The translations under genes were made by a program, and so were the position numbers. A stretch of 64,000 nucleotides of DNA from Bacillota bacterium (GTDB taxonomy: Bacteria > Bacillota > Clostridia > DUPQ01): NCBI GenBank assembly GCA_022706885.1, contig JAKJBR010000001.1, positions 118,138 through 182,137 of the forward strand, given 5' to 3'. Position 1 is the first letter of the stretch. Each line of letters starts with the position of its first letter. The notes beneath the pieces were generated by a model that searched no databases, was not told where the DNA came from, and saw nothing but the letters and a program-made list of their open reading frames with translations. Shown here one piece after another: positions 38,611 through 50,624 of the stretch.

Positions 38611-41136
38611 ATGAAAAGAGCTATCCTGTCTTTGATTACGATAATTTTACTGTTAAGCATGTGCATTAACGCATTTGCATATTGTGAAAGTTTTGAGAGA
38701 ACCGGAAAACACATAAATGTCGCATATGTTTCCGATGTACACACTCCGCAAGGTCATCAATGCGGATATATTTGTCAGGATTGCGAGTTGATTACCGTGA
38801 CGGGATATACAACACTTTCAACATGTTGTCGGTGCACCGGTAATCATAACTACTATACACTTTCTGTCGGATCTCATACCGCTTACGGGCATTTGGTAAA
38901 ATTGAAGTGCTCAACCTGCGGATACACGACCTCCTACTATAAAAAAGATGACAGCTGCTGTGATTGTGTCGGTCATATTCGAGGTCTCATGGAAATAAAC
39001 ACGGAGCATACGCAGGGACTGGGCCATTATTACACCGTTCCCTGTAAGGAATGCGGAGCGATTATAAAAAGCGGATATACAACACTGGCGTCATGTGCTA
39101 TCTGCAATTGCAGTCATTCCTATACAACAAGCATATCCGATTATCATACGTCCGGATCGGGACATTACTATACCAAGAAATGCAGTAAATGCGGCTATGT
39201 TTGCGATTCGGGATATACAGAGAAATCCGACTGTTGCGAATGCAGAGGATACCATAATTACAGTTACAGCGTATCTCCTGCTCATACAACATACGGACAC
39301 TATGTTACACAAAGATGTTTTGACTGCGGACATAATGCCGACTATTACACGACAGTACCCACCTGCTGCTATTGCAGAGGTTATCACAATTACTCATATA
39401 CCGTATCACAGGAACACACTGTTGACGGGCATAAAAAGACCGGTACCTGTTCTGCATGCGGGCATATCACCGTATCTTATACAACACTTGCCGACTGCTG
39501 CCTGTGCAGGGGATATCATGATTTTTCCGAATGGTCGCCGGTTTCAAAAATACATGAGGAACAAGGACATCGACAGAGCAGAACCTGTAAAATTTGCAAA
39601 CAAACGGAAGACAGGTTTACTACATACAGACCGTGTTGCTTATGTCACGGACATGATATGCAGAAGACATCGAATATAGGGGAGCATACCGATTTCGGGC
39701 ATGCCGTCATATACAGATGCATAACATGTGGATATGAAGAAACAATATACGAGGACATGTTCGGCTGTTCTTTATGTTCCAATACTCCCACAAATCAGGA
39801 GGAGTTTATGCTATGGATACAATATTTAGGAATACCTGTAAAAAGTGTAAACGGTAACTATACCGTATCCTTCACAATGTACCGTGATTACGGATATATT
39901 GTTTACGGTAATCCTCAAGATGTAGTGAATAATCATTGTGTAGCAGGTGAATATCAGTTCTTGGGATATACGTTTGATGAAGACCCTTTTACCAATATAT
40001 CTTATCAGAACACCGAAATGGGTCCCGTTAATGCTAATCAGTGGATATATGCCGAAATATCCGGAGCGGTCGAATCGTGGGACAGGCTGGAGCCTTCGGT
40101 GCAAAAACCGTATATGCTGCACACAAATCTTATAGGGCACGGAGCGGTGAATTTTACCGCAAATGATATAGGTATGGCTAAGACAAGGGTGCAGAACGGC
40201 GCATCCTGGCTCAGTACCGGTTCCATCTATACCTTCAAAACCAACGGATATTATGCCACTTTCAAGGTTCCTTCAATGGGTGTTCCCGATGTAAATCTGA
40301 ATGCCGCTTTTACTGAAGAAAGGCTTACCTATTCCGCTGCCGATGTACATAAGAAAGGATATATCAATGTAAACTTCACCATAGACAAACCTCTTAAGGA
40401 AATTGACTATATAAAACTGTCGGTACAGGGAGGTAACAGCATTATTCTGCAGCCTCATGAAAGAAACGGGCAACTGGAGCTGGACATACCGATTCAGAGT
40501 GTCATGCCGGCAAGGTATAAGGTGAGGGTATTAATAGAAGTTAAGAGCATATTTAACGATGTTCATATAACAAGAGAGTATTGTTCTGTAGACCTTTATA
40601 AAGAAGAGACTCCGTATAACCCGACTGATCCCGTACAGCCGGAGGAAATAATATCCGACCTGCCGGAAGATATTCCGTATCAAGCGAATTATGATATTCA
40701 CGTTACCGACATTTCATTGACGGGTTACTGGAATATATGGCATCTGAATGAAAGATTTACCTCACTGGAAAGAGTTCGCTTAAATGTGGCGGTTGAGGGA
40801 AGAGTAACAAAACTGTCGGTCATATTCAGTGAAGAATTGAAAAACCGCACATACCGGGACAAATACGGAAACACCTATGATTATAAAGAGCTTTTAGGCA
40901 GTTATGACATGTGCCCGAATGATATATGTTATGAAGGATTATGGGAGAACGGCTACACATTGAATACGGAATATATACTTCCTCTGTGTCCCGATACCGT
41001 TGATTCTTCCGGTAACAGAATAAAGGATAAGTATTTTATAAAAATAATAGCCGAAAACGAGAATAAGGAGCACACAAAGGAATACCTGATTGATATTACC
41101 GGCAACATTTATGATTTTCTGTATGTGCAGCCATAG
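38611..41136 (+). CDS. secreted protein with eight tandem about-45-aa Cys/His-rich modules followed by about 450-aa Cys-poor C-terminal region
   Basis: 841 aa; signal peptide MKRAILSLITIILLLSMCINAFA; modules follow HT-x2-GH-x5-C-x2-CG-x6-8-YTT-x3-CC-x-C-x-G-x-H-x-Y; nucleotide repeats 38710..39800 generate spurious overlapping ORFs on other frames. Confidence 0.7.
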   Translation: MKRAILSLITIILLLSMCINAFAYCESFERTGKHINVAYVSDVHTPQGHQCGYICQDCELITVTGYTTLSTCCRCTGNHNYYTLSVGSHTAYGHLVKLKCSTCGYTTSYYKKDDSCCDCVGHIRGLMEINTEHTQGLGHYYTVPCKECGAIIKSGYTTLASCAICNCSHSYTTSISDYHTSGSGHYYTKKCSKCGYVCDSGYTEKSDCCECRGYHNYSYSVSPAHTTYGHYVTQRCFDCGHNADYYTTVPTCCYCRGYHNYSYTVSQEHTVDGHKKTGTCSACGHITVSYTTLADCCLCRGYHDFSEWSPVSKIHEEQGHRQSRTCKICKQTEDRFTTYRPCCLCHGHDMQKTSNIGEHTDFGHAVIYRCITCGYEETIYEDMFGCSLCSNTPTNQEEFMLWIQYLGIPVKSVNGNYTVSFTMYRDYGYIVYGNPQDVVNNHCVAGEYQFLGYTFDEDPFTNISYQNTEMGPVNANQWIYAEISGAVESWDRLEPSVQKPYMLHTNLIGHGAVNFTANDIGMAKTRVQNGASWLSTGSIYTFKTNGYYATFKVPSMGVPDVNLNAAFTEERLTYSAADVHKKGYINVNFTIDKPLKEIDYIKLSVQGGNSIILQPHERNGQLELDIPIQSVMPARYKVRVLIEVKSIFNDVHITREYCSVDLYKEETPYNPTDPVQPEEIISDLPEDIPYQANYDIHVTDISLTGYWNIWHLNERFTSLERVRLNVAVEGRVTKLSVIFSEELKNRTYRDKYGNTYDYKELLGSYDMCPNDICYEGLWENGYTLNTEYILPLCPDTVDSSGNRIKDKYFIKIIAENENKEHTKEYLIDITGNIYDFLYVQP

Positions 41137-41744: not shown

Positions 41745-41990
41745 ATGTACAGATATAAAACAAAAGGAACATGTTCAACCGAGATAACTTTTGAGATACA
41801 GGAAGGAAAACTGAAGGATGTGAAATTTACGGACGGATGCAGCGGGAATCTTCAGGGTATAAGCAAATTGCTTGAGGGTATGGAAGCATAGAAAGCCGTA
41901 AGCCTGTTGAAAGGCATTAAATGCGGTTATAAAGAAACATCCTGCCCCGATCAGTTGTCCATAGCGATAAGTAAGGTGTTGGAACACTGA
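41745..41990 (+). pseudogene. TSCPD-domain small protein gene interrupted by in-frame TAG at 41889..41891
   Basis: Translation MYRYKTKGTCSTEITFEIQEGKLKDVKFTDGCSGNLQGISKLLEGMEA*KAVSLLKGIKCGYKETSCPDQLSIAISKVLEH; both halves conserved (GTCS, GGC.GN.KGI, TSCPDQL). Confidence 0.55.
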
Positions 41991-41997
41991 ATCCTTT

Positions 41998-43383
41998 TTA
42001 TTTTACCATTCCCAACAGTTGTCGTACCCGTTTTTGCAGATGCTTTTCAATTGCCGTCAATCGCTCTTCCGGCCAGTTAACGGACGGATGCCTCTTGAAG
42101 GTAAAACCGATTAAACGACGCAACTGCTGTGCCTGTGCTTTTCCCGCAACTTCTCTGCAAATGTCTTCGAATGTTACATCCGGATAAGCGGGTAGACGGG
42201 TTTTAGCATATTGGTCAAGGTTTTTGATGTCTTTAGGCATAGCATAATTAAACAGTGAAAGTCCGTGGTCAAACAGAGGTGCAGGGGCAATCAATGCACC
42301 TGAATGATTATCTCTTAAGACTCCGAAATTTCCGAAGTGTCTGTCCTCATTGTAGATTACCGCGTCAAATACCAGCATGCTGTGTACCGCTTGGAGAAAA
42401 TCTTCCCCGATTGAAGAATAGTATTTTAATACCGCTTTCAAACCGCCCGATGTTACAATGCGTCCTACCGGTACAAAAGCGGTATCAATATCACAAAACA
42501 ACTTGCATTTTGAAGCTAAAATACCTTTCCAGTTCTCCAATTCATACTGCACGGCATTTAGACCCATGGTCTGTGCAATTTGGCAAGCATAATATTCACT
42601 GTAAGGCTCGTTTCCCGTATTAGCGGCACCGAATGTGCCTCCCTTATACAAGTAAATACCGTCATTATCAATAAGGCGCCATGCTTTAGGCAACATTCCG
42701 GCAGTAGTCAGCTCCGGCGAGGTTGTGAAACCTCCGTGACTTTGCTCTATACCCGTATAGGCAACCAAAGAAAGAATTTCCGAAAAACGGTTTTCATAGA
42801 GGTTATACTGAGCAAAGGAACCTTCAAAGCCCTCCGGGACTACCCAAAAACTGTCGTTAAGCGACAAGCCCTTGCAAATATCAATAATACCTTTAGTATC
42901 ACCTTGAGACAGATTTAAAGTTTTCAAGATCTCTTTCACAAAGGTACGGTTTTTAGGAATCACTCGTTTCTCCAACCATCTCAAAATGCCTTTATCAGAC
43001 AGTTCCAATCCAAGCGGGAGTAAGTGAAGTTGTTCCTTGTCAATAGAAATAATATGTGCTGTCAATCCTTCAATTCCTCTTTTCTCAAGAGAGAAAGTGA
43101 GTAATACTTTGTCAAAGAGCCGTAACTCGTAGTTGTTTTTCATATGGGAAAGTACTTTCGTTGAAGGTGCTGTCAGTTCAATTTTCAGCTCCAAAACCGA
43201 AGCCACTTGTAGTAAAAGGTCCAATGAAGGACTGTGACTTCCGCTTTCCAAGCGTGATATGGCGGAACGGTGCATACCTAAAAGTTCAGCTAACTGACTT
43301 TGTGTGAGACCTTTAGCAACCCGTGCTTTTGTAATCTGTTTGATAATATCCTGACGAAAGTCTTTAATATTATTGTCCGTCAT
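41998..43383 (-). CDS. HTH (XRE-type) - HipA-like Ser/Thr kinase fusion (HipH/YjjJ-like toxin)
   Basis: 461 aa; N-terminal HTH GLTQSQLAELLGMHRSAISRLESG; C-terminal HipA catalytic loop VIYNEDRHFGNFGVL; own promoter TTGACA-17-AATAAT at 43402..43430. Confidence 0.7.
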   Translation of the reverse strand: MTDNNIKDFRQDIIKQITKARVAKGLTQSQLAELLGMHRSAISRLESGSHSPSLDLLLQVASVLELKIELTAPSTKVLSHMKNNYELRLFDKVLLTFSLEKRGIEGLTAHIISIDKEQLHLLPLGLELSDKGILRWLEKRVIPKNRTFVKEILKTLNLSQGDTKGIIDICKGLSLNDSFWVVPEGFEGSFAQYNLYENRFSEILSLVAYTGIEQSHGGFTTSPELTTAGMLPKAWRLIDNDGIYLYKGGTFGAANTGNEPYSEYYACQIAQTMGLNAVQYELENWKGILASKCKLFCDIDTAFVPVGRIVTSGGLKAVLKYYSSIGEDFLQAVHSMLVFDAVIYNEDRHFGNFGVLRDNHSGALIAPAPLFDHGLSLFNYAMPKDIKNLDQYAKTRLPAYPDVTFEDICREVAGKAQAQQLRRLIGFTFKRHPSVNWPEERLTAIEKHLQKRVRQLLGMVK

Positions 43384-43493
43384 TAAAATGCCTCCTGCTC
43401 TATTATTGCAAAATGTAACAAATTTGTCAACAAATTACAAGAAACATTTAATAACAGTTCTACGTGGTAACAAATATGTAGACAATTATTTGA

Positions 43494-43658
43494 TTAAATT
43501 GTAAATGCTATTCCTACCTTAAAAACTTTTCGTGGTTTTTTATTATTTTCCATAAAACCAAGCACATCTGCAAGACGACAAATCTTTTCAAATGTATCTC
43601 GGACAAAACCAAGAGCATTGGCTTGTCTGTTCAGTTCTGCTTTACTAAAGTGCAGCAT
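43494..43658 (-). pseudogene. N-terminal remnant of AbiEii-type nucleotidyltransferase toxin (about 25 homologous codons then unrelated sequence)
   Basis: MLHFSKAELNRQANALGFVRDTFEKI resembles the N-terminus of AbiEii toxins as I recall them, then diverges and stops after 54 codons; start overlaps AbiEi stop by 14 nt as in intact abiEi-abiEii operons. Confidence 0.4.
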
Positions 43659-44409
43659 GATAATCTACTCCTTTATTTATCACCGTATTTATATCCTTTG
43701 GTGCCATAAGTCTCCATTCCGGATGATATACATATCCTATATGTTCCTTTGTGAGATAGCGGTCGGATTTAGGTATACGATCTGCGCAGATGCGGAAGAA
43801 AGCATCCGATAGACCGTAAGACTCGCGAAAGTGTTTCAGGATAAAACCGGTTTTTTGGTAGAGAAAACCATTTTGATATTCATTCAGAGTAAATAGCAGT
43901 TTTTCTTCATTTAGGGTAGGTATCAGATCAAGGCAGCGGAGAAGCTCCTCCAGTCCCGCAATCTTATCTACATCATTGATACTGTCGATAACCGTCTGTT
44001 CTACTCCTGTAACACGGACACCTCCTATTATTTCCGTTTGCACAGTTCCTTTAGGTGAAACACGGCGGAAAGTTATTCCATCGTATTCAAAGTCCTTGAA
44101 ACGACTGCCTGTCATAACATAAACCTCATAAAATACTTGATTTGCATACCCATATACTTCAAAGGCACTATGATGTGAAACGGACGCATCGGGAAATAGG
44201 CGGCTGCCTATTCCGTAACGCGATAAGATTGGTTGCTTGTTCTCTATGCTTATCGCAACGTAAAAGTTATGCCTGACCCGTTCTATATATCCTTTTTTCT
44301 GATATTGTTGTAATATGGTGGCTGCTGTATTATCCCCCAATTGTAAAGCCTTAGCAAGCTCACTACGGGAAAAGCAACCCATTTCTACCATATTCTCATA
44401 GTATTTCAA
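43645..44409 (-). CDS. AbiEi-type antitoxin/transcriptional regulator (type IV TA, winged HTH)
   Basis: 254 aa; N-terminal GCFSRSELAKAL...KKGYIERVRHNFY wHTH pattern typical of AbiEi. Confidence 0.55.
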   Translation of the reverse strand: MKYYENMVEMGCFSRSELAKALQLGDNTAATILQQYQKKGYIERVRHNFYVAISIENKQPILSRYGIGSRLFPDASVSHHSAFEVYGYANQVFYEVYVMTGSRFKDFEYDGITFRRVSPKGTVQTEIIGGVRVTGVEQTVIDSINDVDKIAGLEELLRCLDLIPTLNEEKLLFTLNEYQNGFLYQKTGFILKHFRESYGLSDAFFRICADRIPKSDRYLTKEHIGYVYHPEWRLMAPKDINTVINKGVDYHAAL

Positions 44410-44518
44410 AAGAATATACCTCCTGTATTTTTAATTATTGCACAAAAAGACTTAAACAGCAATATAGTTGTGCAATTATTAAAAAGGGGAGGAAATAAAA
44501 AAAGCGGTAATTTTGCCG

Positions 44519-45058
44519 CTATTCTATAACCGTTAAAACATCTTCCAAGGATTTTCTTTTCTTCGGACGGAGTTTGTCCGAGTCGTCTTTATAGCCTACC
44601 GCTATAACCAGCCTTATCCTGTCGGACTTTTTAATATTCAGCAGTTCTTTAATGCCGTTTTCATTAAACCAACCTATTATACAGGTGGATAATCCCAAAG
44701 CTTCAGCCTGCAATACAAAATGTGCCACGGATATCCCTATATCCATTGAGGAAAAATCCTGATCCTTTAATCGCTCTCCCATAGATGCCATTGCATTGGT
44801 AGGTTTTTCGGTAATAACCGCAAAAGCGGGTGTTTTGGTTGTAAATCTGTTGGCGCCGGCGGACTGTAAATGCCTTACCAGTTTAGTTACTGTTTCACTC
44901 TCGGTAATAAGGGTATAATGCCACGGCTGACCGTTACATGCCGAAGGTGCTATGGCCGCAGACTTTATGCACTGCATAAGTTTTTCTTTTTCAACTGGTC
45001 TGTCCGAATAGTTTCTGCAACTCTGTCTTTTTGATGCCAATTCGTAAAAATTATCCAT
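44519..45058 (-). CDS. nitroreductase-family protein
   Basis: ORF 44519..45073 trimmed to ATG 45058; KRQSCRNY, APSACNGQPW motifs. Confidence 0.75.
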   Translation of the reverse strand: MDNFYELASKRQSCRNYSDRPVEKEKLMQCIKSAAIAPSACNGQPWHYTLITESETVTKLVRHLQSAGANRFTTKTPAFAVITEKPTNAMASMGERLKDQDFSSMDIGISVAHFVLQAEALGLSTCIIGWFNENGIKELLNIKKSDRIRLVIAVGYKDDSDKLRPKKRKSLEDVLTVIE

Positions 45059-46691
45059 TATAAGCCTCCTCAATCATACTTTCTTCCCAGGTTTCGGGGG
45101 CCACATATCCTAAAAGATTGACAACCGTAGCCGCCACATTGGCCAATCCGAAATCGCCTTCTTTCAGTGCATAACCCTTGTCTTTTCTGTTGTCATAGAT
45201 AATGAACGGAACTTTGTTAAGAGTATGACTGGTTTTGGGCACCGGTTTTCCCGTTTTTCTGTCTATTGATATGATGCCTTTCTTTGTCTCGTACATCTCC
45301 TCGGCGTTTCCGTGGTCTGCCGTTATTATGGCTACTCCGTTCAATCGGTCCACAACCGGCAACATTCTTGCCAGACAAAGGTCTACCGATTCCACACCTA
45401 TTACAGCCGCATCGAAACTGCCCGTGTGACCTACCATATCCCCGTTGGGGAAATTCATTCTCAGGAACTTATATTCTCCGCTTTTCAACGCTTCCAGAAG
45501 CTTATCGGTTATAAGGGCGCATTGCATCCAGGGACGTTGCTCAAACGGTATCTTATCCGAAGGTATTTCAACATATGTCTCACCTTCAAATTTGGCGGAA
45601 TTGTTTCCGTTCCAGAAATATGTGACATGTCCGAATTTCTGTGTTTCGGATATTGCGAACTGTTTAATTCCTTTTTTGGAGAGATTTTCTCCCAATGTGT
45701 TTTTTATATCCGGAGGGCTGACCAAATAGTTCTTGGGTATATGAAGGTCTCCGTCATATTCCAGCATACCCGCATAAATGACATTCGGTACTCTTACTCT
45801 GTCGAATTTGTCAAAGTTCTTTTCTTCAAATGCTCTGCTTATTTCAATAGCCCTGTCTCCGCGGAAGTTGTAGAATATAACACTGTCGTTATCTTCTATT
45901 GTTCCCACCGGTTTATTGTCTTTTGTTATTACAAATCCCGGAAGAAACTGATCCACCACATCGGTTTCCGCCCTGTATGTCTCTATAGCTTCCTTGGCGG
46001 AGGAAAATGCGCGTCCTTTTCCCAATACATGAATTTCCCAGCCTTTTCTTACCATATCCCAGTCGGCTTCATATCTGTCCATGGTAATATTCATTCTGCC
46101 GCCGCCGCTTGCAATTTCAACATCAAAACTTTTACAGCGCAAAGTATCAAGATACTCTTCAAAAGGCTCCACATATTCCAGGGCCGATGTTTCTCCGACA
46201 TCTCTTCCGTCCAATAATATATGCACACGCGCTTTTTTAACTCCTTCGGCTTTTGCCTGTTCCAACATTGCTTTAAGATGAGCTATATTGGAATGAACAT
46301 TGCCGTCGGAAAACAACCCTATAAAATGTATTGTAGAATTATGCTTTATGCAATTGTCTTTAAGTTTAAGCCAGGTTTTCCCGCTGAAAATGGTTTTCTT
46401 TTCTATGGCTTCAAAAACCAGTTTTGCTCCCTGACTGTAAATCTGTCCGGAACCCAATGCGTTATGACCTACTTCCGAGTTGCCCATATCCTCATCACCC
46501 GGTAATCCTACCGCAACACCGTGAGCCTTTATGGTCGTATGCGGATATTTGTCCATCAACATCCTCAATGTAGGAGCATTTGCAGCCGCTACGGCATTTC
46601 CTTCTTTTTTATCCGATAACCCCACTCCGTCCATTACGATAAGAAGAAGCGGTCCTTGTATTTCTTTGAATTCAGAGCTTTTTTTAAGCAT
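45051..46691 (-). CDS. gpmI: 2,3-bisphosphoglycerate-independent phosphoglycerate mutase
   Basis: 546 aa; LLLIVMDGVGL, NSEVGHNALG, alkaline-phosphatase-like core. Confidence 0.9.
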   Translation of the reverse strand: MLKKSSEFKEIQGPLLLIVMDGVGLSDKKEGNAVAAANAPTLRMLMDKYPHTTIKAHGVAVGLPGDEDMGNSEVGHNALGSGQIYSQGAKLVFEAIEKKTIFSGKTWLKLKDNCIKHNSTIHFIGLFSDGNVHSNIAHLKAMLEQAKAEGVKKARVHILLDGRDVGETSALEYVEPFEEYLDTLRCKSFDVEIASGGGRMNITMDRYEADWDMVRKGWEIHVLGKGRAFSSAKEAIETYRAETDVVDQFLPGFVITKDNKPVGTIEDNDSVIFYNFRGDRAIEISRAFEEKNFDKFDRVRVPNVIYAGMLEYDGDLHIPKNYLVSPPDIKNTLGENLSKKGIKQFAISETQKFGHVTYFWNGNNSAKFEGETYVEIPSDKIPFEQRPWMQCALITDKLLEALKSGEYKFLRMNFPNGDMVGHTGSFDAAVIGVESVDLCLARMLPVVDRLNGVAIITADHGNAEEMYETKKGIISIDRKTGKPVPKTSHTLNKVPFIIYDNRKDKGYALKEGDFGLANVAATVVNLLGYVAPETWEESMIEEAYNG

Positions 46692-46845: not shown

Positions 46846-47021
46846 AAGTAATTTATTTAACAGTTCTCTGTTTTATGTTAGAATGAACCGTGTGTAGCAG
46901 CAGTATTAATAAAAAATATATATAGAAGAAGAAAAAGAAACAGAGTATTGTTTGGATAGTTAAGTCTTGAAGATACAGTATATATGCAATTTTATTGTAT
47001 TTAAATCGGAGGTCTGACAGA

Positions 47022-48746
47022 ATGGAAAACAGGAAAAAAAGATTTGCTATTTTGATTATCGCAGCTGTAATTATAGTTATTGCGGCTTCACTGTTGTTTT
47101 TATTCCGTGACAGATTATTTAAAAAAGACAACTTTGTTGTTACAACATTTAACAGCGATATTGTAATAAAAAGAACGGATGCGAATGAATCGTTGGATAT
47201 GCCTTACAGATATACCAAAGCACTGATGGATAACTTATTTATATTCAGACAGGAAATTGCCGGCATCAATATAGCATCCGTAAAGTATAACATGAGCGAT
47301 AACTATATCAATTGGCATACACCGGAGGGTGTTTTAACAGATACCGACAGAGGTAAAGGTAAGCAGGTAATAGATGAGGTAAAGTATTTCAAGGGTATAT
47401 CCACTTTAAGTTCGATAGTTGCCGACAAGGAAGACTGCAAGATATCCATTTATGAAGGCTATTCCGAAGATTTACTGATGCATGATTATCAAAACTTTGC
47501 CATTATACCTTCTTCCATGAGTAAGTATTTTGATAAGGATTTGCCTGCCGATGAAAAGGTGTTGAATATAAGGAATATGAGATACGGCAGCATGTTGCAT
47601 TTTACGATAATAGGGGAGTACAAGACTGAAGAAGAGTATGATACCTTGTATGTTACGTATACCGGCTTAAGTACCTTAATCCGTGCCGGCAGAGCCGATA
47701 TTCTAAACCATGTTGACTGTCTGGAAATTGATGTGAATGAGGACAAGGATCTTAATAAACTTATGCGTTTCTTAAGCGAATATTACGCGGATGCACAGGT
47801 GCTTTCCCAGTATACGGAAAGGAATAATATATATAACGACCCTTATCAATATATGTTTGTTCACTCAATGGGTATAGAACCTATTGAACTTAAAGAGAAT
47901 GTAATCTATGAAAAGAACATAATAACCATATCCAGAATGGACGGGAAGGAAGATCTTGAAATGTCGCATGTGTATGCCGATGCGATAATAAAAGGGTATA
48001 ACAAATATTCACAATGCATAACCGATTTAGATATAAGTACGGGAGTAAAAGGAATTAATCCGGCAGATTATCCTCCCGGTTCGGAAGCTTTCTGGAATCA
48101 GCCGGTATATCAGTTGCTTTTAAAATATGACACGGTATACGAGGCTAAACTGAAAGAAACGCTGGGGGACTTTCCCTGTTATCATCAGGCCGTTACAAGT
48201 ATAAATGAAATATTAAGGATGAAAAAAGACTGCAAAGTTACATACTATCTGAACTATATGAACAGTGACCTTATTGTACCCAGACAGAAGGACTTGTTGG
48301 GCAAAATAAAAGGCTATGCCATAGTTCCCAAACCTTTGCATGAGGCAACATCCGATCTTCCCAATTTTAACAATCACATTGTTGAAGTATATGAGAGCAG
48401 GGTATATGTCGGTATAGGCGGAGTTGACCCCAGTCAGATAGACAGATCTCCTCATTTTAGAGCCCAATTTAAAATAATAGGGTATTACGAGACAACCGAT
48501 CCGTATGATACCGTGTTTGTAACATATGTCGGATGCAACGAGAAGTATAAAAGTGCAGCATTCAAGAACGAACATATAGAGTCTATAACCATGAAGACAA
48601 AAGGAGATGTGGAGATAAGTCCGTTGATTAATTTTTTGAAGTTGTATTTTGCACCTTCGGAAAACGCCGCTGAATATGCAGGCAGTACAAATGAATTGGG
48701 TTTGGCGTATGAATACAGTTTTACAATGAAGGAGATTGCGGAGTAA
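47022..48746 (+). CDS. paralog 1 of a membrane-anchored, internally duplicated extracytoplasmic protein family of unknown function
   Basis: ORF 46995..48746 trimmed to ATG 47022 (MENRKKRFAILIIAAVIIVIAASLLF TM anchor); shares KYCKGITSL..IVADK, NEPYQYMYV, KYSQYITDI.ISTG, GYAIVPK, IGYYETTD.YDTV.VTY.G motifs with the next two genes. Confidence 0.7.
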   Translation: MENRKKRFAILIIAAVIIVIAASLLFLFRDRLFKKDNFVVTTFNSDIVIKRTDANESLDMPYRYTKALMDNLFIFRQEIAGINIASVKYNMSDNYINWHTPEGVLTDTDRGKGKQVIDEVKYFKGISTLSSIVADKEDCKISIYEGYSEDLLMHDYQNFAIIPSSMSKYFDKDLPADEKVLNIRNMRYGSMLHFTIIGEYKTEEEYDTLYVTYTGLSTLIRAGRADILNHVDCLEIDVNEDKDLNKLMRFLSEYYADAQVLSQYTERNNIYNDPYQYMFVHSMGIEPIELKENVIYEKNIITISRMDGKEDLEMSHVYADAIIKGYNKYSQCITDLDISTGVKGINPADYPPGSEAFWNQPVYQLLLKYDTVYEAKLKETLGDFPCYHQAVTSINEILRMKKDCKVTYYLNYMNSDLIVPRQKDLLGKIKGYAIVPKPLHEATSDLPNFNNHIVEVYESRVYVGIGGVDPSQIDRSPHFRAQFKIIGYYETTDPYDTVFVTYVGCNEKYKSAAFKNEHIESITMKTKGDVEISPLINFLKLYFAPSENAAEYAGSTNELGLAYEYSFTMKEIAE

Positions 48747-48809
48747 AAATTATGCCGTAATTTGTGTTTTACATAAGGATTTACAAACAACCGATTGGAG
48801 GGTAAAAAC

Positions 48810-50624
48810 ATGAAAAAAACAAATATGATTATAGCTGTCGCCTTAACAGTTATAATAACTGCATTGCTGTTGGCATCTTGTGACGGTCTGTCAAAAAAAG
48901 AAGAGGGTTTGATTGATGCAACATTCAGCAACGATATAGTTATAAAAAGGGTTGACGGGAAGCAACCGGCAAATATACCGTATAAGTATACAAAAGCCCT
49001 GCTTTCGGACAATATAGCATATATTGACGGAGTGGAGGCTGTAAATATATCTTCTCGCAGATACAACATAAAGGATAATGATATAAGTGTGCGCGGAGAC
49101 AGGGATTTGTTTGTTTCTTCGGAGGAGGAAAAAGCTGCGGAAGTTATGGGCTCGATAAAGTACTGTAAAGGTATAACTTCCCTCTGCACGATAGTCGCCG
49201 ACAAAGGAAAAAGTAAAGTGGAGTTTTATGCAGGATATTCCGAGGAGTATCTTACAAGTGTAGATAAAGCTTATGTAATTATTCCGTCTTCCATAGGTGA
49301 GCTTATAAACGAAGAGATACCTGATTCCGACAAAAGAATAGTACTGGAGAAAGGCGCTTTCGGTATAACATATTTCACTATAATAGGGGAGTATGAAGTA
49401 AAAGACAGGAGCAAAAATAAAGGTGAGCCCGATACCCTATATCTGTCATATGCGGGATTTGGTAACTTGATTAATATGGGTGAAGAGATTGACATAAGCT
49501 TTGTTGATTGTCTGGAGATTGACGCAGATGAGCAAGCCGATCTCACAAAACTTACCTACTGTCTTACCACATATTTTGCCGATGCAAACACGCTTTCTCA
49601 ATATGAAGGCAGGATAAACATGTTTAACGAGAATTACTCATATATGTATGAAAACTCCGTCAACATGAAGTCGTTGGATTTATCACCCGATACAGATTGT
49701 GAAAAGAAAATAATAACCGTTTCCAGAATAGACGGAAAAAGTGATTTGGATATGTCCTATGTATATGCAGATGCGTTGGTAAGAGATTACAATAAATACT
49801 CACAATACATAACCGATATAAATATAAGTACCGGTTTGGGAGGACATGATCCTTATGAAAATGCAAAACTTGAGTCAATAGACAAAGGCGGTGGTTTTAT
49901 ACAGACAAATTTTATTCTTGATAATGCTGACGGTCTGAATATAAGTTTTGCTTCAAGCTCAACCGGTTTTCGCGATGCGGTAACCAATATGATTACACAG
50001 AATCGTAAAGATGCCTTGGCAGATGTAGGAAAAGGGAAAGCTTGGAAAAAACACGTTCAATATCTTTTGCATCAGCCTATAACCAGCATAAGTGAAATAG
50101 AAAAAATGAAGAGCAACAGCGAGGTGACTTTTTATACGAACTATACAAACAGGGATCTTGTTGTGCAAAGAAAGGAAGATTATATTGAGAGTACCTTTAA
50201 AAGCGACGGTGATATAAAAGGATATGCGATAATACCTAAGACAATGCATGATGCCGCAAGCGCTCTTCCCGATTTAAAAACCCATATTTTATACCTGAGC
50301 GAGAAAAATGATGCTGTGGAGAGTAACCAGAAAGTATTAGTCGGTTTTAAGGTAATAGGCTATTACGAGACAGATGACAGATATGATGTGGTATATATAA
50401 CATATGCGGGCAGTAATGATAAGTATACAAAGGAACGTTTCAGAAATGACTATATTAACTCTGTAACCATAGAAACAAAAAAAGATACCGACATTACACC
50501 GTTGCTGGAATATCTGGAGCAGTATTTTGCACCGGCAACCGATACATCAAAATATGCGGGAAAGAAAAATGCATTGGGCAGGGATTATGAATATTGCTAT
50601 ACAATTAAAAGCAATGCGGATTAA
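48810..50624 (+). CDS. paralog 2 (lipoprotein form) of the same family
   Basis: ORF 48795..50624 trimmed to ATG 48810 (MKKTNMIIAVALTVIITALLLASC lipobox). Confidence 0.7.
   Translation: MKKTNMIIAVALTVIITALLLASCDGLSKKEEGLIDATFSNDIVIKRVDGKQPANIPYKYTKALLSDNIAYIDGVEAVNISSRRYNIKDNDISVRGDRDLFVSSEEEKAAEVMGSIKYCKGITSLCTIVADKGKSKVEFYAGYSEEYLTSVDKAYVIIPSSIGELINEEIPDSDKRIVLEKGAFGITYFTIIGEYEVKDRSKNKGEPDTLYLSYAGFGNLINMGEEIDISFVDCLEIDADEQADLTKLTYCLTTYFADANTLSQYEGRINMFNENYSYMYENSVNMKSLDLSPDTDCEKKIITVSRIDGKSDLDMSYVYADALVRDYNKYSQYITDINISTGLGGHDPYENAKLESIDKGGGFIQTNFILDNADGLNISFASSSTGFRDAVTNMITQNRKDALADVGKGKAWKKHVQYLLHQPITSISEIEKMKSNSEVTFYTNYTNRDLVVQRKEDYIESTFKSDGDIKGYAIIPKTMHDAASALPDLKTHILYLSEKNDAVESNQKVLVGFKVIGYYETDDRYDVVYITYAGSNDKYTKERFRNDYINSVTIETKKDTDITPLLEYLEQYFAPATDTSKYAGKKNALGRDYEYCYTIKSNAD

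Follow-up and report, generated by a model that had tools for sequence, protein, structure and literature searches.

An orphan AbiEi, a truncated abiEii and a single-chain Hip-type kinase gene: probable toxin replacement in a Clostridia genome

The islet described here is a 2.5-kb insert, at ~41991..44518 of the window (the whole 64,000-nt stretch of DNA analysed), between two convergent housekeeping loci, a nitroreductase gene and a TSCPD-purN pair. It carries an intact abiEi, the first 38 codons of abiEii, and a gene for a 461-aa protein that joins a DNA-binding domain to a Hip-type kinase. The most parsimonious history is that abiE was acquired at this site and its toxin gene was then replaced. 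The full explanation, which adds to these two steps a solo, cis-regulated Hip-type kinase and an orphan AbiEi kept by selection, is given a probability of roughly 0.7.

Layout of the islet

The principal features, listed in the direction of transcription of abiEi, are as follows.

44503..44520, minus strand: intrinsic terminator of the nitroreductase gene (AGCGG-loop-CCGCT followed by a T-run; terminator scan), the left edge of the islet
44428..44485, minus strand: abiEi promoter region with an inverted repeat, 18-nt arms at 44428-44445 and 44468-44485
43645..44409, minus strand: abiEi, intact, 254 aa, TTG start, encoding an AbiEi antitoxin/repressor that is now an orphan
43494..43658, minus strand: abiEii remnant, a 54-codon ORF whose codons 1-38 (43545..43658) are the AbiEii N-terminus
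43539..43545, no strand: left breakpoint of the replacement, where abiEii homology ends, ATGGAAAAT / AATAAAAAACC
41998..43383, minus strand: gene for the 461-aa single-chain protein (HipB-like HTH, HipS-like N-subdomain, HipA-CtkA-like Ser/Thr kinase)
41991..42000, no strand: right edge of the islet; kinase stop at 41998..42000, with the convergent TSCPD stop (41988..41990) 7 nt away

All the contigs examined from this species, representing 17 distinct loci, show the same arrangement, and the trio of abiEi, remnant and kinase gene recurs in strain L030 at 97.6% identity (2.4% divergence). A G+C profile shows that the composition of the islet matches its flanks, with no compositional island. 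The initial annotation had taken the region for part of a rapidly evolving defence island, a description that does not suit 2.5 kb of flank-like G+C amid housekeeping genes, an identical arrangement at 17 loci, and genes under strong purifying selection. The locus is better described as a tidy, fairly ordinary case of defence-gene turnover.

Truncation of abiEii beside an intact abiEi

The abiEii-like ORF overlaps abiEi by 14 nt, as the initial annotation had read from the letters; the ORF coordinates bear this out, and the same overlap is seen in the intact operons L026 and L029. A profile search proposed as a check on this ORF was favourable: the remnant matches the PADLOC AbiEii model (E=1.9e-8), with residues 4-41 aligned to profile positions 3-40 of 306. 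When intact AbiEii proteins are searched against the 64-kb window by tblastn, the single segment recovered is residues 1-40 at 43658..43539 (E=2e-15), with no second AbiEii remnant. Alignment to L029, L025 and L026 raises the number of homologous codons from the ~25 first estimated to 38, 32 of which are identical to those of the syntenic relative L029; codons 39-54 are an unrelated read-out into inserted DNA. The break is placed at ~43543 by blastn, in which homology to L029 ends at ~43542, and by multiple alignment with L029, L025 and L026.

What has been deleted is codons 39 to ~320 of abiEii, including NTase motifs I-IV, so that of the AbiEii (DUF1814) NTase only residues 1-38 are left and everything from motif I onward (G50/G51 in relatives) is absent. 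These motifs (G49/G50, D67/D69, K173/R180, D192) are required for AbiEii toxicity (PMC3985639). Judged by its sequence, a remnant without any NTase motif cannot be toxic. Neither Pfam nor NCBIfam gives a match to the 54-aa ORF. The remnant stops at residue 38, the very position at which the Pfam AbiEii domain (PF08843) starts, so the PADLOC full-length model and direct alignments were needed; the PF08843 search suggested at the outset would have spoken wrongly against the finding.

The neighbouring AbiEi is complete, and the picture of a truncated abiEii next to an intact antitoxin gene thus stands. It matches PADLOC AbiEi models over its full length (E=7e-96 and 1e-93, residues 1-249), as expected of a ~250-aa AbiEi with a winged HTH and a C-terminal antitoxin domain. 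Among its relatives at 76-80% identity, the partner AbiEii is complete in L025, L026 and L042, split in L043, and interrupted by the contig end in L029. The Pfam searches recommended initially were less informative, with AbiEi_4 at only 19 bits and HipA_C at 25.5 bits, both below cutoff; PADLOC and fold comparison confirmed the two families. Upstream of abiEi, the arms of the inverted repeat are 94% complementary, lie 22 nt apart and are near-identical in L030. AbiEi proteins autorepress via inverted repeats (PMC3985639, PMC7319586), and this one is predicted to be, and likely is, the AbiEi operator. The sole result of an Rfam scan, a sub-threshold match to mir-315 at the abiEi promoter, is spurious and reflects only the promoter hairpin.

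History of the locus

The site is empty in L031, a related MAG, in which gpmI-nitroreductase is directly convergent on an intact 82-aa TSCPD gene and purN, with the nitroreductase stop 3-6 nt from the TSCPD stop; the nitroreductase end of L031 has no hairpin like that at the left edge of the islet. On the right, homology to this empty site resumes at 41970. In L029, abiEi-abiEii occupies the same site beside the nitroreductase gene, and its abiEii, of at least 136 codons, extends past the break seen in the window. Because the L029 contig breaks off at abiEii codon 136, the full toxin of this sister lineage and its right junction lie outside view; a metagenome scan with the L029 AbiEii fragment found no closer contig, only relatives at 75-87% in other contexts. 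It is the empty site of L031 together with the abiEi-abiEii pair of L029 that makes a two-step history the most parsimonious. The suggestion that a cassette replaced most of abiEii is thereby upheld by synteny, and the recommended search for intact abiEi-abiEii in relatives was productive, yielding the intact operons L025 and L026, the syntenic L029, and the left breakpoint.

In the first step, a mobile two-gene abiEi-abiEii module would have landed in a near-zero intergenic gap. In the second, abiEii past codon 38 would have been replaced by a compact solo-kinase cassette running from promoter to stop, with insertion and deletion occurring as one event or two. The DNA homology shared with the L018 cassette begins at the promoter (43440) and ends 12 nt short of the stop (42010), with none outside these limits. 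A search for a recombinase or for flanking direct or inverted repeats that would explain movement of the cassette gave no convincing candidate. The A-rich microhomology AAAATAA present at both junctions is low-complexity sequence.

An alternative is that the rearranged trio was acquired whole from elsewhere, the toxin having been replaced at some place other than the present locus. In its favour, abiE and the kinase cassette are each mobile and turn up in many different surroundings, and the spacer upstream of abiEi is ~110 nt in the window vs ~259 nt in L029. However, the closest AbiEi (80% identity) is that of L029, which has abiEi-abiEii at the very same site with abiEii continuing past the break, and the trio is found at no other locus among the species contigs and 80 abiE loci. 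Acquisition of the trio as a unit is distinctly unlikely.

A single-chain Hip-type kinase

The 461-aa protein is divided as follows.

43168..43383, minus strand: HTH, residues 1-72 (approximate boundaries)
42829..43134, minus strand: HipS-like N-subdomain, residues ~84-185 (approximate)
42001..42726, minus strand: kinase core, residues ~220-461 (approximate)
42325..42351, minus strand: catalytic loop NEDRHFGNF, residues 345-353, with D347, H349 and N352
42268..42270, minus strand: Mg-binding D372 (LFDHG), from sequence and homologue alignment

The HTH is a Pfam HTH_3 domain (E=3.7e-15, residues 19-69). Pfam HipA_C (PF07804) scores 25.5 bits vs a cutoff of 30.5, over residues 327-388 only, so relatedness to HipA had to rest on fold. 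The fold search assigns an XRE HTH like that of HipB, a HipS-like N-subdomain, and a core with the HipA/CtkA kinase fold. The loop has the D-x-H-x-x-N of the HipA superfamily, accompanied by the Mg-binding Asp, and aligns with HipA TDGHAKNF and HipH NSDMHAGNL. Among 42 homologues at 64-100% identity, D347 is conserved in at least 90%, and H349, N352 and D372 are conserved in at least 90% or invariant. An invariant block, T221-S222-P223-E224-L225-T226-T227-x-G229-x-L231-x-K233, resembles the HipA Gly-rich loop; it falls in a region where the AF2 model is of low confidence (residues 198-230 and 250-258, in the vicinity of the putative loop, have pLDDT <50), and no tool aligns it. The initial reading of a 461-aa XRE-HTH/HipA-kinase fusion with an intact catalytic loop therefore holds, with the relation to HipA resting on fold. 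The kinase gene has been under strong purifying selection since the truncation (omega 0.044, p=3e-10).

The same reading had placed the kinase in the HipH/YjjJ family, as a toxin swapped into a rapidly evolving defence island. The two proteins share a layout, an N-terminal HTH and a Hip-type kinase in a monocistronic gene (PMC8262856), and their catalytic loops align. Beyond that loop they do not align: the NCBIfam YjjJ equivalog (NF007297) scores 13 bits vs a cutoff of 401, and against E. coli HipH, BLASTP gives E=0.2 over 37 residues and hhalign a probability of 0.9%. The HTH of HipH is not of the XRE type, HipH scores 75 bits with HipA_C vs 25.5 here, and the 461-aa protein has an additional HipS-like subdomain and is nearer to CtkA. 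Combined with the housekeeping neighbours and unremarkable G+C, these differences leave membership in HipH/YjjJ highly improbable.

A search found 7077 relatives of the 461-aa protein, a large and mostly clostridial family that is uncharacterised; source annotation calls them only 'helix-turn-helix domain-containing protein'. In the five homologues whose surroundings were examined, the gene stands alone each time, in unrelated contexts that lack AbiE and share no conserved neighbour. Some members lie among core genes in several genomes, one adjoining rplM-rpsI in Vescimonas. Such neighbourhoods, the bare HTH annotation, the omega of 0.044, and the many substrates of E. coli HipH in metabolism and cell division (PMC9948734) could point to a non-toxin, that is, a housekeeping transcription factor whose signalling domain is a kinase or resembles one. 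The distribution of the family is patchy and context-free, however, and extends to a conjugative element, Campylobacter and Helicobacter plasmids, and phage contigs; the kinase core matches the PADLOC defence candidate PDC-M03A (E=4e-15), and the nearest solved folds are all HipA, HipT or CtkA toxins/effectors. A housekeeping role is accordingly judged unlikely.

Control of the kinase gene

Four elements lie upstream of the kinase gene.

43467..43485, minus strand: the upstream one of two 19-nt direct repeats, TTGTCTACATATTTGTTAC (repeat search), and a candidate operator to which the HTH of the kinase protein itself would bind
43415..43433, minus strand: second copy of the repeat, overlapping the -35 box and forming a near-palindrome
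43430..43402, minus strand: kinase promoter TTGACA-17-AATAAT (11/12, extended -10 TG), which ranks first among the sites of the region
43391..43396, minus strand: RBS AGGAGG, 7 nt before the ATG (read from sequence)

The promoter and RBS proposed initially to drive the kinase are thus supported; the promoter does not abut the truncation point as had been thought, but lies ~110 nt downstream of the break. Promoter-like sites as a whole occur at chance level (9 vs 7.5 expected), but this one is conserved in the homologous L018 cassette, which also has an element similar to the upstream repeat copy on its 5' side. Four further homologues (L018, L021, L023, L041) have paired TGTTAC/TGATAC/GTTATC half-sites across their core promoters. 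The 461-aa protein would then be a Hip module in one polypeptide, in which the HipB-like HTH autorepresses through the two repeats over its own promoter and the HipS-like N-subdomain serves as a cis lid or inhibitor. By analogy with known Hip toxins, the de-repressed or triggered kinase would phosphorylate a translation factor or another essential target and so arrest growth.

A terminator scan found none between the remnant and the kinase promoter, and transcripts from the abiEi promoter may read through into the kinase gene, hence some regulatory link. A stronger proposal is that AbiEi and the kinase are a functional hybrid pair, in which AbiEi represses the kinase, drives it by read-through, or neutralises it, for example through inactivating autophosphorylation. 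AbiEi is reported to induce toxin autophosphorylation (preprint 10.64898/2026.01.19.700257) and autophosphorylation switches off HipA kinases (PMC8262856), so an AbiEi could in principle trans-regulate a single-chain Hip kinase; strong purifying selection on abiEi since toxin loss and the lack of a terminator in the abiEi-kinase interval are also consistent with this. The pairing is not recurrent, however, with the kinase in 0/80 abiE loci and AbiEi in 0/5 of the kinase contexts examined, and the kinase's promoter, operator-like repeats and HTH are all conserved in solo homologues. Its absence from all 80 abiE loci makes the adjacency look accidental. A functional pair is very unlikely, and there is only a slim chance that the orphan AbiEi has been re-wired specifically as a trans-regulator or read-through driver, making a hybrid TA pair out of two unrelated systems.

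Retention of the orphan AbiEi

Under toxin replacement with a self-contained kinase, AbiEi would be unneeded for its own toxin and kept by selection. Comparison with L030 shows 13 synonymous and 2 non-synonymous changes in abiEi (omega=0.041, p=1.7e-7), and the gene has therefore been under strong purifying selection since abiEii was truncated; this omega rules out a decaying leftover. Most likely the orphan persists because it is a repressor that regulates itself, because it protects against AbiEii toxins that enter from outside, or for both reasons. An omega of ~0.04 after toxin loss is a clean measurement that bears on the persistence of orphan antitoxins, for instance as anti-addiction factors or regulators.

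Comparison with known systems

AbiE is an abortive-infection TA system of Streptococcus agalactiae and Lactococcus, classed as type IV. A 2026 preprint has reclassified it as type VII. The islet retains the full-length AbiEi, the 14-nt overlap of a bicistronic operon, the inverted repeat at the promoter and the first 38 AbiEii codons, but the toxin (codons 39 to ~320) is gone and AbiEi, although orphaned, is under purifying selection. Across related genomes, three stages of TA turnover are visible at one site: empty, filled with abiEi-abiEii (abiEii to codon 136), and with the toxin replaced by a different, putative toxin gene.

HipBA and HipBST (E. coli K-12 HipA, E. coli O127 HipBST, Shewanella HipAB) have their parts in separate genes, whereas here three are fused into one. 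No HipB or HipS gene adjoins the kinase gene, whose neighbours are abiEi and the TSCPD gene; HTH and HipS-like subdomain reside in the same 461-aa chain, and similarity to HipA in sequence, compared by BLASTP and hhalign, does not extend beyond the catalytic loop and one helix. CtkA has been described as a secreted, host-directed kinase. CtkA of Helicobacter pylori (JHP0940, PDB 3akj) lacks both the HTH and the N-subdomain of the 461-aa protein. Neither CtkA nor Clostridia is mentioned in the 2021 Hip kinase phylogeny. The PADLOC PDC-M03A models match the kinase core (residues 225-390), but PDC-M03 is an uncharacterised multi-gene candidate system, given a single passing mention in the literature, and no match to its B component came from the three islet proteins scanned.

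HipH/YjjJ of E. coli K-12 (clade X of the Hip tree) is a parallel in architecture, as a monocistronic gene joining an N-terminal DNA-binding domain to a Hip-type kinase (PMC8262856), an arrangement that the 461-aa protein shares in its HTH_3 domain, fold, own promoter and five solo homologues. It is not a relative in sequence, and of the two only the 461-aa protein has an XRE-type HTH and a HipS-like subdomain. The fusion in the 461-aa protein arose independently and by convergence, and the protein is closer to CtkA and HipA than to HipH. The very large, mostly clostridial family that joins HipB-like, HipS-like and kinase parts in one chain is flagged here, its kinase being missed by standard Pfam and NCBIfam thresholds; a Hip module contained in one protein would be convenient for studying the cis-regulation of Hip toxins.

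Organization of the islet

Three minus-strand ORFs lie between a gpmI-nitroreductase pair on one side and TSCPD-purN genes on the other, arranged as the initial annotation described them, including the 14-nt overlap of the first two.

43645..44409, minus strand: abiEi, TTG start, 254 aa
43494..43658, minus strand: abiEii remnant, a 54-codon ORF, 14-nt overlap with abiEi
41998..43383, minus strand: kinase ORF, 461 codons
43430..43402, minus strand: kinase promoter TTGACA-17-AATAAT, 11/12, extended -10 TG
7 nt 5' of the kinase ATG: RBS, AGGAGG
43415-43433: 19-nt repeat, copy 1, over the -35 box
43467-43485: 19-nt repeat, copy 2, kinase promoter

The kinase promoter is the top-scoring one in a scan of the region, which bears out the earlier promoter and RBS calls. 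AbiEi is full length (PADLOC AbiEi profile, E=7e-96, residues 1-249, model of 253 positions), and Pfam and NCBIfam detect it weakly. Its promoter retains an 18-nt inverted repeat, consistent with the known autoregulation by AbiEi (PMC3985639, PMC7319586). An Rfam mir-315 match on both strands at 44417..44494, sub-threshold at 36.5 bits (gathering score 63), was rejected as an artefact of this repeat.

Loss of the AbiEii toxin body

In L025, L026-28 and L042, whose AbiEi proteins are 76-78% identical to the one here, abiEi overlaps a complete abiEii encoding 313-325 aa, and the closest relative (L029, 80% identity) carries at least 136 abiEii codons up to its contig end. These operons, of the kind that the initial annotation had suggested seeking, place the break at ~43543: in DNA and protein alignments the window gene tracks its relatives for exactly 38 codons (MLHF...GFMEN; 32/38 identical to L029), rather than the ~25 first estimated, and then continues through 16 unrelated codons to a stop. 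Directly past this point the relatives have motif I (KGGT, G50/G51) and motif II (D67/D69); toxicity of S. agalactiae AbiEii requires each of motifs I-IV (PMC3985639). A tblastn search of the whole 64 kb with two intact AbiEii proteins matched residues 1-40 and no other AbiEii sequence; ~88% of the toxin gene has therefore been deleted, not relocated.

The 54-aa ORF matches the first 40 of 306 positions of the PADLOC AbiEii model (E=1.9e-8), supporting its identity as an AbiEii N-terminus, whereas Pfam and NCBIfam profiles give zero detection. Pfam is blind to the remnant because its AbiEii domain covers an intact relative only from residue 38 onward, and the profile search originally proposed for refutation would therefore have misled.

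AbiEii is shortened in 8 of 76 evaluable relatives, some possibly through assembly errors, and toxin decay next to an intact AbiEi is not rare. In another lineage, at L043 77..1805 (GCA_963612185.1, CAVDUQ010000321.1), an intact AbiEi (76% identical) precedes two ORFs, of 118 aa and 189 aa, into which AbiEii has been split; here, independently, the toxin has decayed and the antitoxin has stayed.

History of the locus

The trio and its flanks occur in 17/17 distinct contigs of this organism examined, mostly from anaerobic-digester metagenomes, and in one NCBI MAG. Scanning genomes for the nitroreductase protein turned up L030 and L031. L030, a close strain, carries this islet too and is collinear with the window at 97.6% identity. 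L031, a more distant Clostridia MAG, is an empty site: its gpmI-nitroreductase genes and an intact TSCPD gene (82 aa) with purN point directly at each other, the nitroreductase and TSCPD stop codons being only a few bases apart. L029 has abiEi-abiEii at the same position, directly 3' of the nitroreductase gene. From these comparisons, the most parsimonious history is gain of abiE in the convergent gap, followed by replacement of the toxin body by a kinase cassette; this much of the initial interpretation, a decapitated abiEii with a kinase in its place, stands. A main but less likely alternative, gain of the already rearranged trio in one step, finds no support: the trio was found nowhere else, and the kinase or these flanks in 0/80 metagenomic abiE loci. 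Islet G+C is in line with that of the flanks and the neighbours are housekeeping genes; the locus is an islet, not the defence island first proposed.

In the flanking TSCPD-domain gene (41745..41990, plus strand), codon 49 is an in-frame TAG (41889..41891; ..LLEGMEA*KAVSLLKGIKCGYKETSCPDQL..). The resulting 48-aa call repeats across this strain's metagenome contigs wherever the contig end spares the gene; L030 has no internal stop and L031 has Glu at this codon. The TAG seems to be a recent nonsense mutation at the strain level, although readthrough is possible.

Two further neighbours, both without Pfam matches, deserve mention. An 841-aa Cys/His-rich repeat protein (38611..41136, plus strand), adjoining an SLH-domain protein, differs from L030 by 39 synonymous and 29 non-synonymous changes and may be a fast-evolving surface protein. 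Adjoining gpmI, 46995..50000 (plus strand) and its L030 equivalent hold tandem paralogues of ~574-604 aa, the copies sharing 63-70% identity at the DNA level.

Selection since truncation

L030 shares the truncated architecture, so its differences from the window postdate truncation.

Changes between the window and L030 (Nei-Gojobori estimates)
Gene; synonymous; non-synonymous; omega; p
abiEi; 13; 2; 0.041; 1.7e-7
kinase; 19; 3; 0.044; 3e-10
abiEii remnant; 2; 2; 0.26; not significant
gpmI; 8; 4; 0.13; 9e-4

Constraint marks both the orphan AbiEi and the kinase as functional genes. Their dS values (abiEi, 43645..44409, 0.082; kinase, 41998..43383, 0.064) are ~3x that of the adjacent gpmI (45051..46691, 0.024), possibly because they recombined with other alleles or because codon constraint differs.

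The kinase and its family

The kinase opens with an XRE-type HTH (HTH_3, E=3.7e-15). The nearest solved protein by sequence is H. pylori CtkA (E=1.4e-5 by single sequence, 7.9e-10 by profile).

Fold comparison of the kinase (score; extent)
HipA (4pu3_A, 5k98_A); 21.2, 21.0; 307, 319
CtkA (3akj_A); 17.9; 221
HipT (7wcf_A, 7ab3_C); 14.1, 12.8; 211, 215
HipS (7vkb_B, 7ab3_B); 8.8, 8.0; 93/102, 91/100
HipB chains; about 8.8; 63-66

The chain therefore has three parts, a HipB-like HTH (1-72), a HipS-like N-subdomain-1 (~84-185) and a kinase core (~220-461). The catalytic loop noted initially (NEDRHFGNF) is present: at least 90% of 42 homologues conserve its D347, H349 and N352, and also D372, as they do a putative Gly-rich-loop-like block (TSPELTT-G-L-K) that falls where the model is poor.

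Relatives are numerous (7077 matches in a word-indexed search; 5776 cluster representatives at E<=1e-3, including 455 at <=1e-30). Many relatives of ~375-400 aa start at query residue 84 and thus lack the HTH; plasmids of Campylobacter and Helicobacter carry such forms, as do gut phage contigs. On Campylobacter helveticus plasmid pHELV-1 (NZ_CP020479.1, 3498..7691), two HTH-less 'HipA domain-containing' genes lie near a Fic-family gene, just 5' of a TraM-recognition gene, and may be clustered kinases that serve as toxins or effectors. Full-length homologues occupy unrelated contexts without a conserved partner or AbiE: among ATPase genes, beside a relaxase gene in a conjugative element, between DUF554 and adh_short genes, and adjoining rplM-rpsI in Vescimonas.

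At the DNA level the window aligns with an 80%-identical homologue (L018) between 43440 (just 5' of the -35 box) and 42010 (12 nt short of the kinase stop), and neither flank is homologous; the mobile unit therefore spans promoter to stop. Paired TGTTAC/TGATAC/GTTATC half-sites cover the core promoters of four homologues, L018 included, one a perfect palindrome; together with the 19-nt repeats they would fit autorepression of the kinase promoter by the fused HTH.

Interpretation

The reading preferred here, with a probability of about 0.7, is that the AbiE module is inactivated with its AbiEi antitoxin/repressor retained, beside a single-chain Hip-type kinase toxin that would be independent and self-regulated. 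The other main alternatives concern the kinase. It could form a functional hybrid with AbiEi: the two genes lack a terminator between them, and AbiEi reportedly neutralizes AbiEii toxin by inducing autophosphorylation (2026 preprint 10.64898/2026.01.19.700257), but the pairing is non-recurrent; or it could be a non-toxic regulator. The initial annotation is thus confirmed in what it observed and supported in part in what it inferred. The locus illustrates toxin-antitoxin turnover clearly but holds little surprise; more useful are a measure of how far an orphan AbiEi is constrained and the recognition of a large family of HipB-HipS-kinase fusions that had gone unannotated.

The initial assignment of the kinase to the HipH/YjjJ type does not hold. 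It scores 13 bits against the YjjJ/HipH equivalog model (cutoff 401), and its alignment with E. coli HipA and HipH is confined to the catalytic loop in BLASTP and profile comparison. In E. coli HipH the HTH is not of the XRE type and HipA_C matches strongly, whereas the kinase here joins an XRE HTH to a sub-cutoff HipA_C match (25.5 bits, cutoff 30.5); the likeness to HipH is one of convergent architecture, not of family membership.
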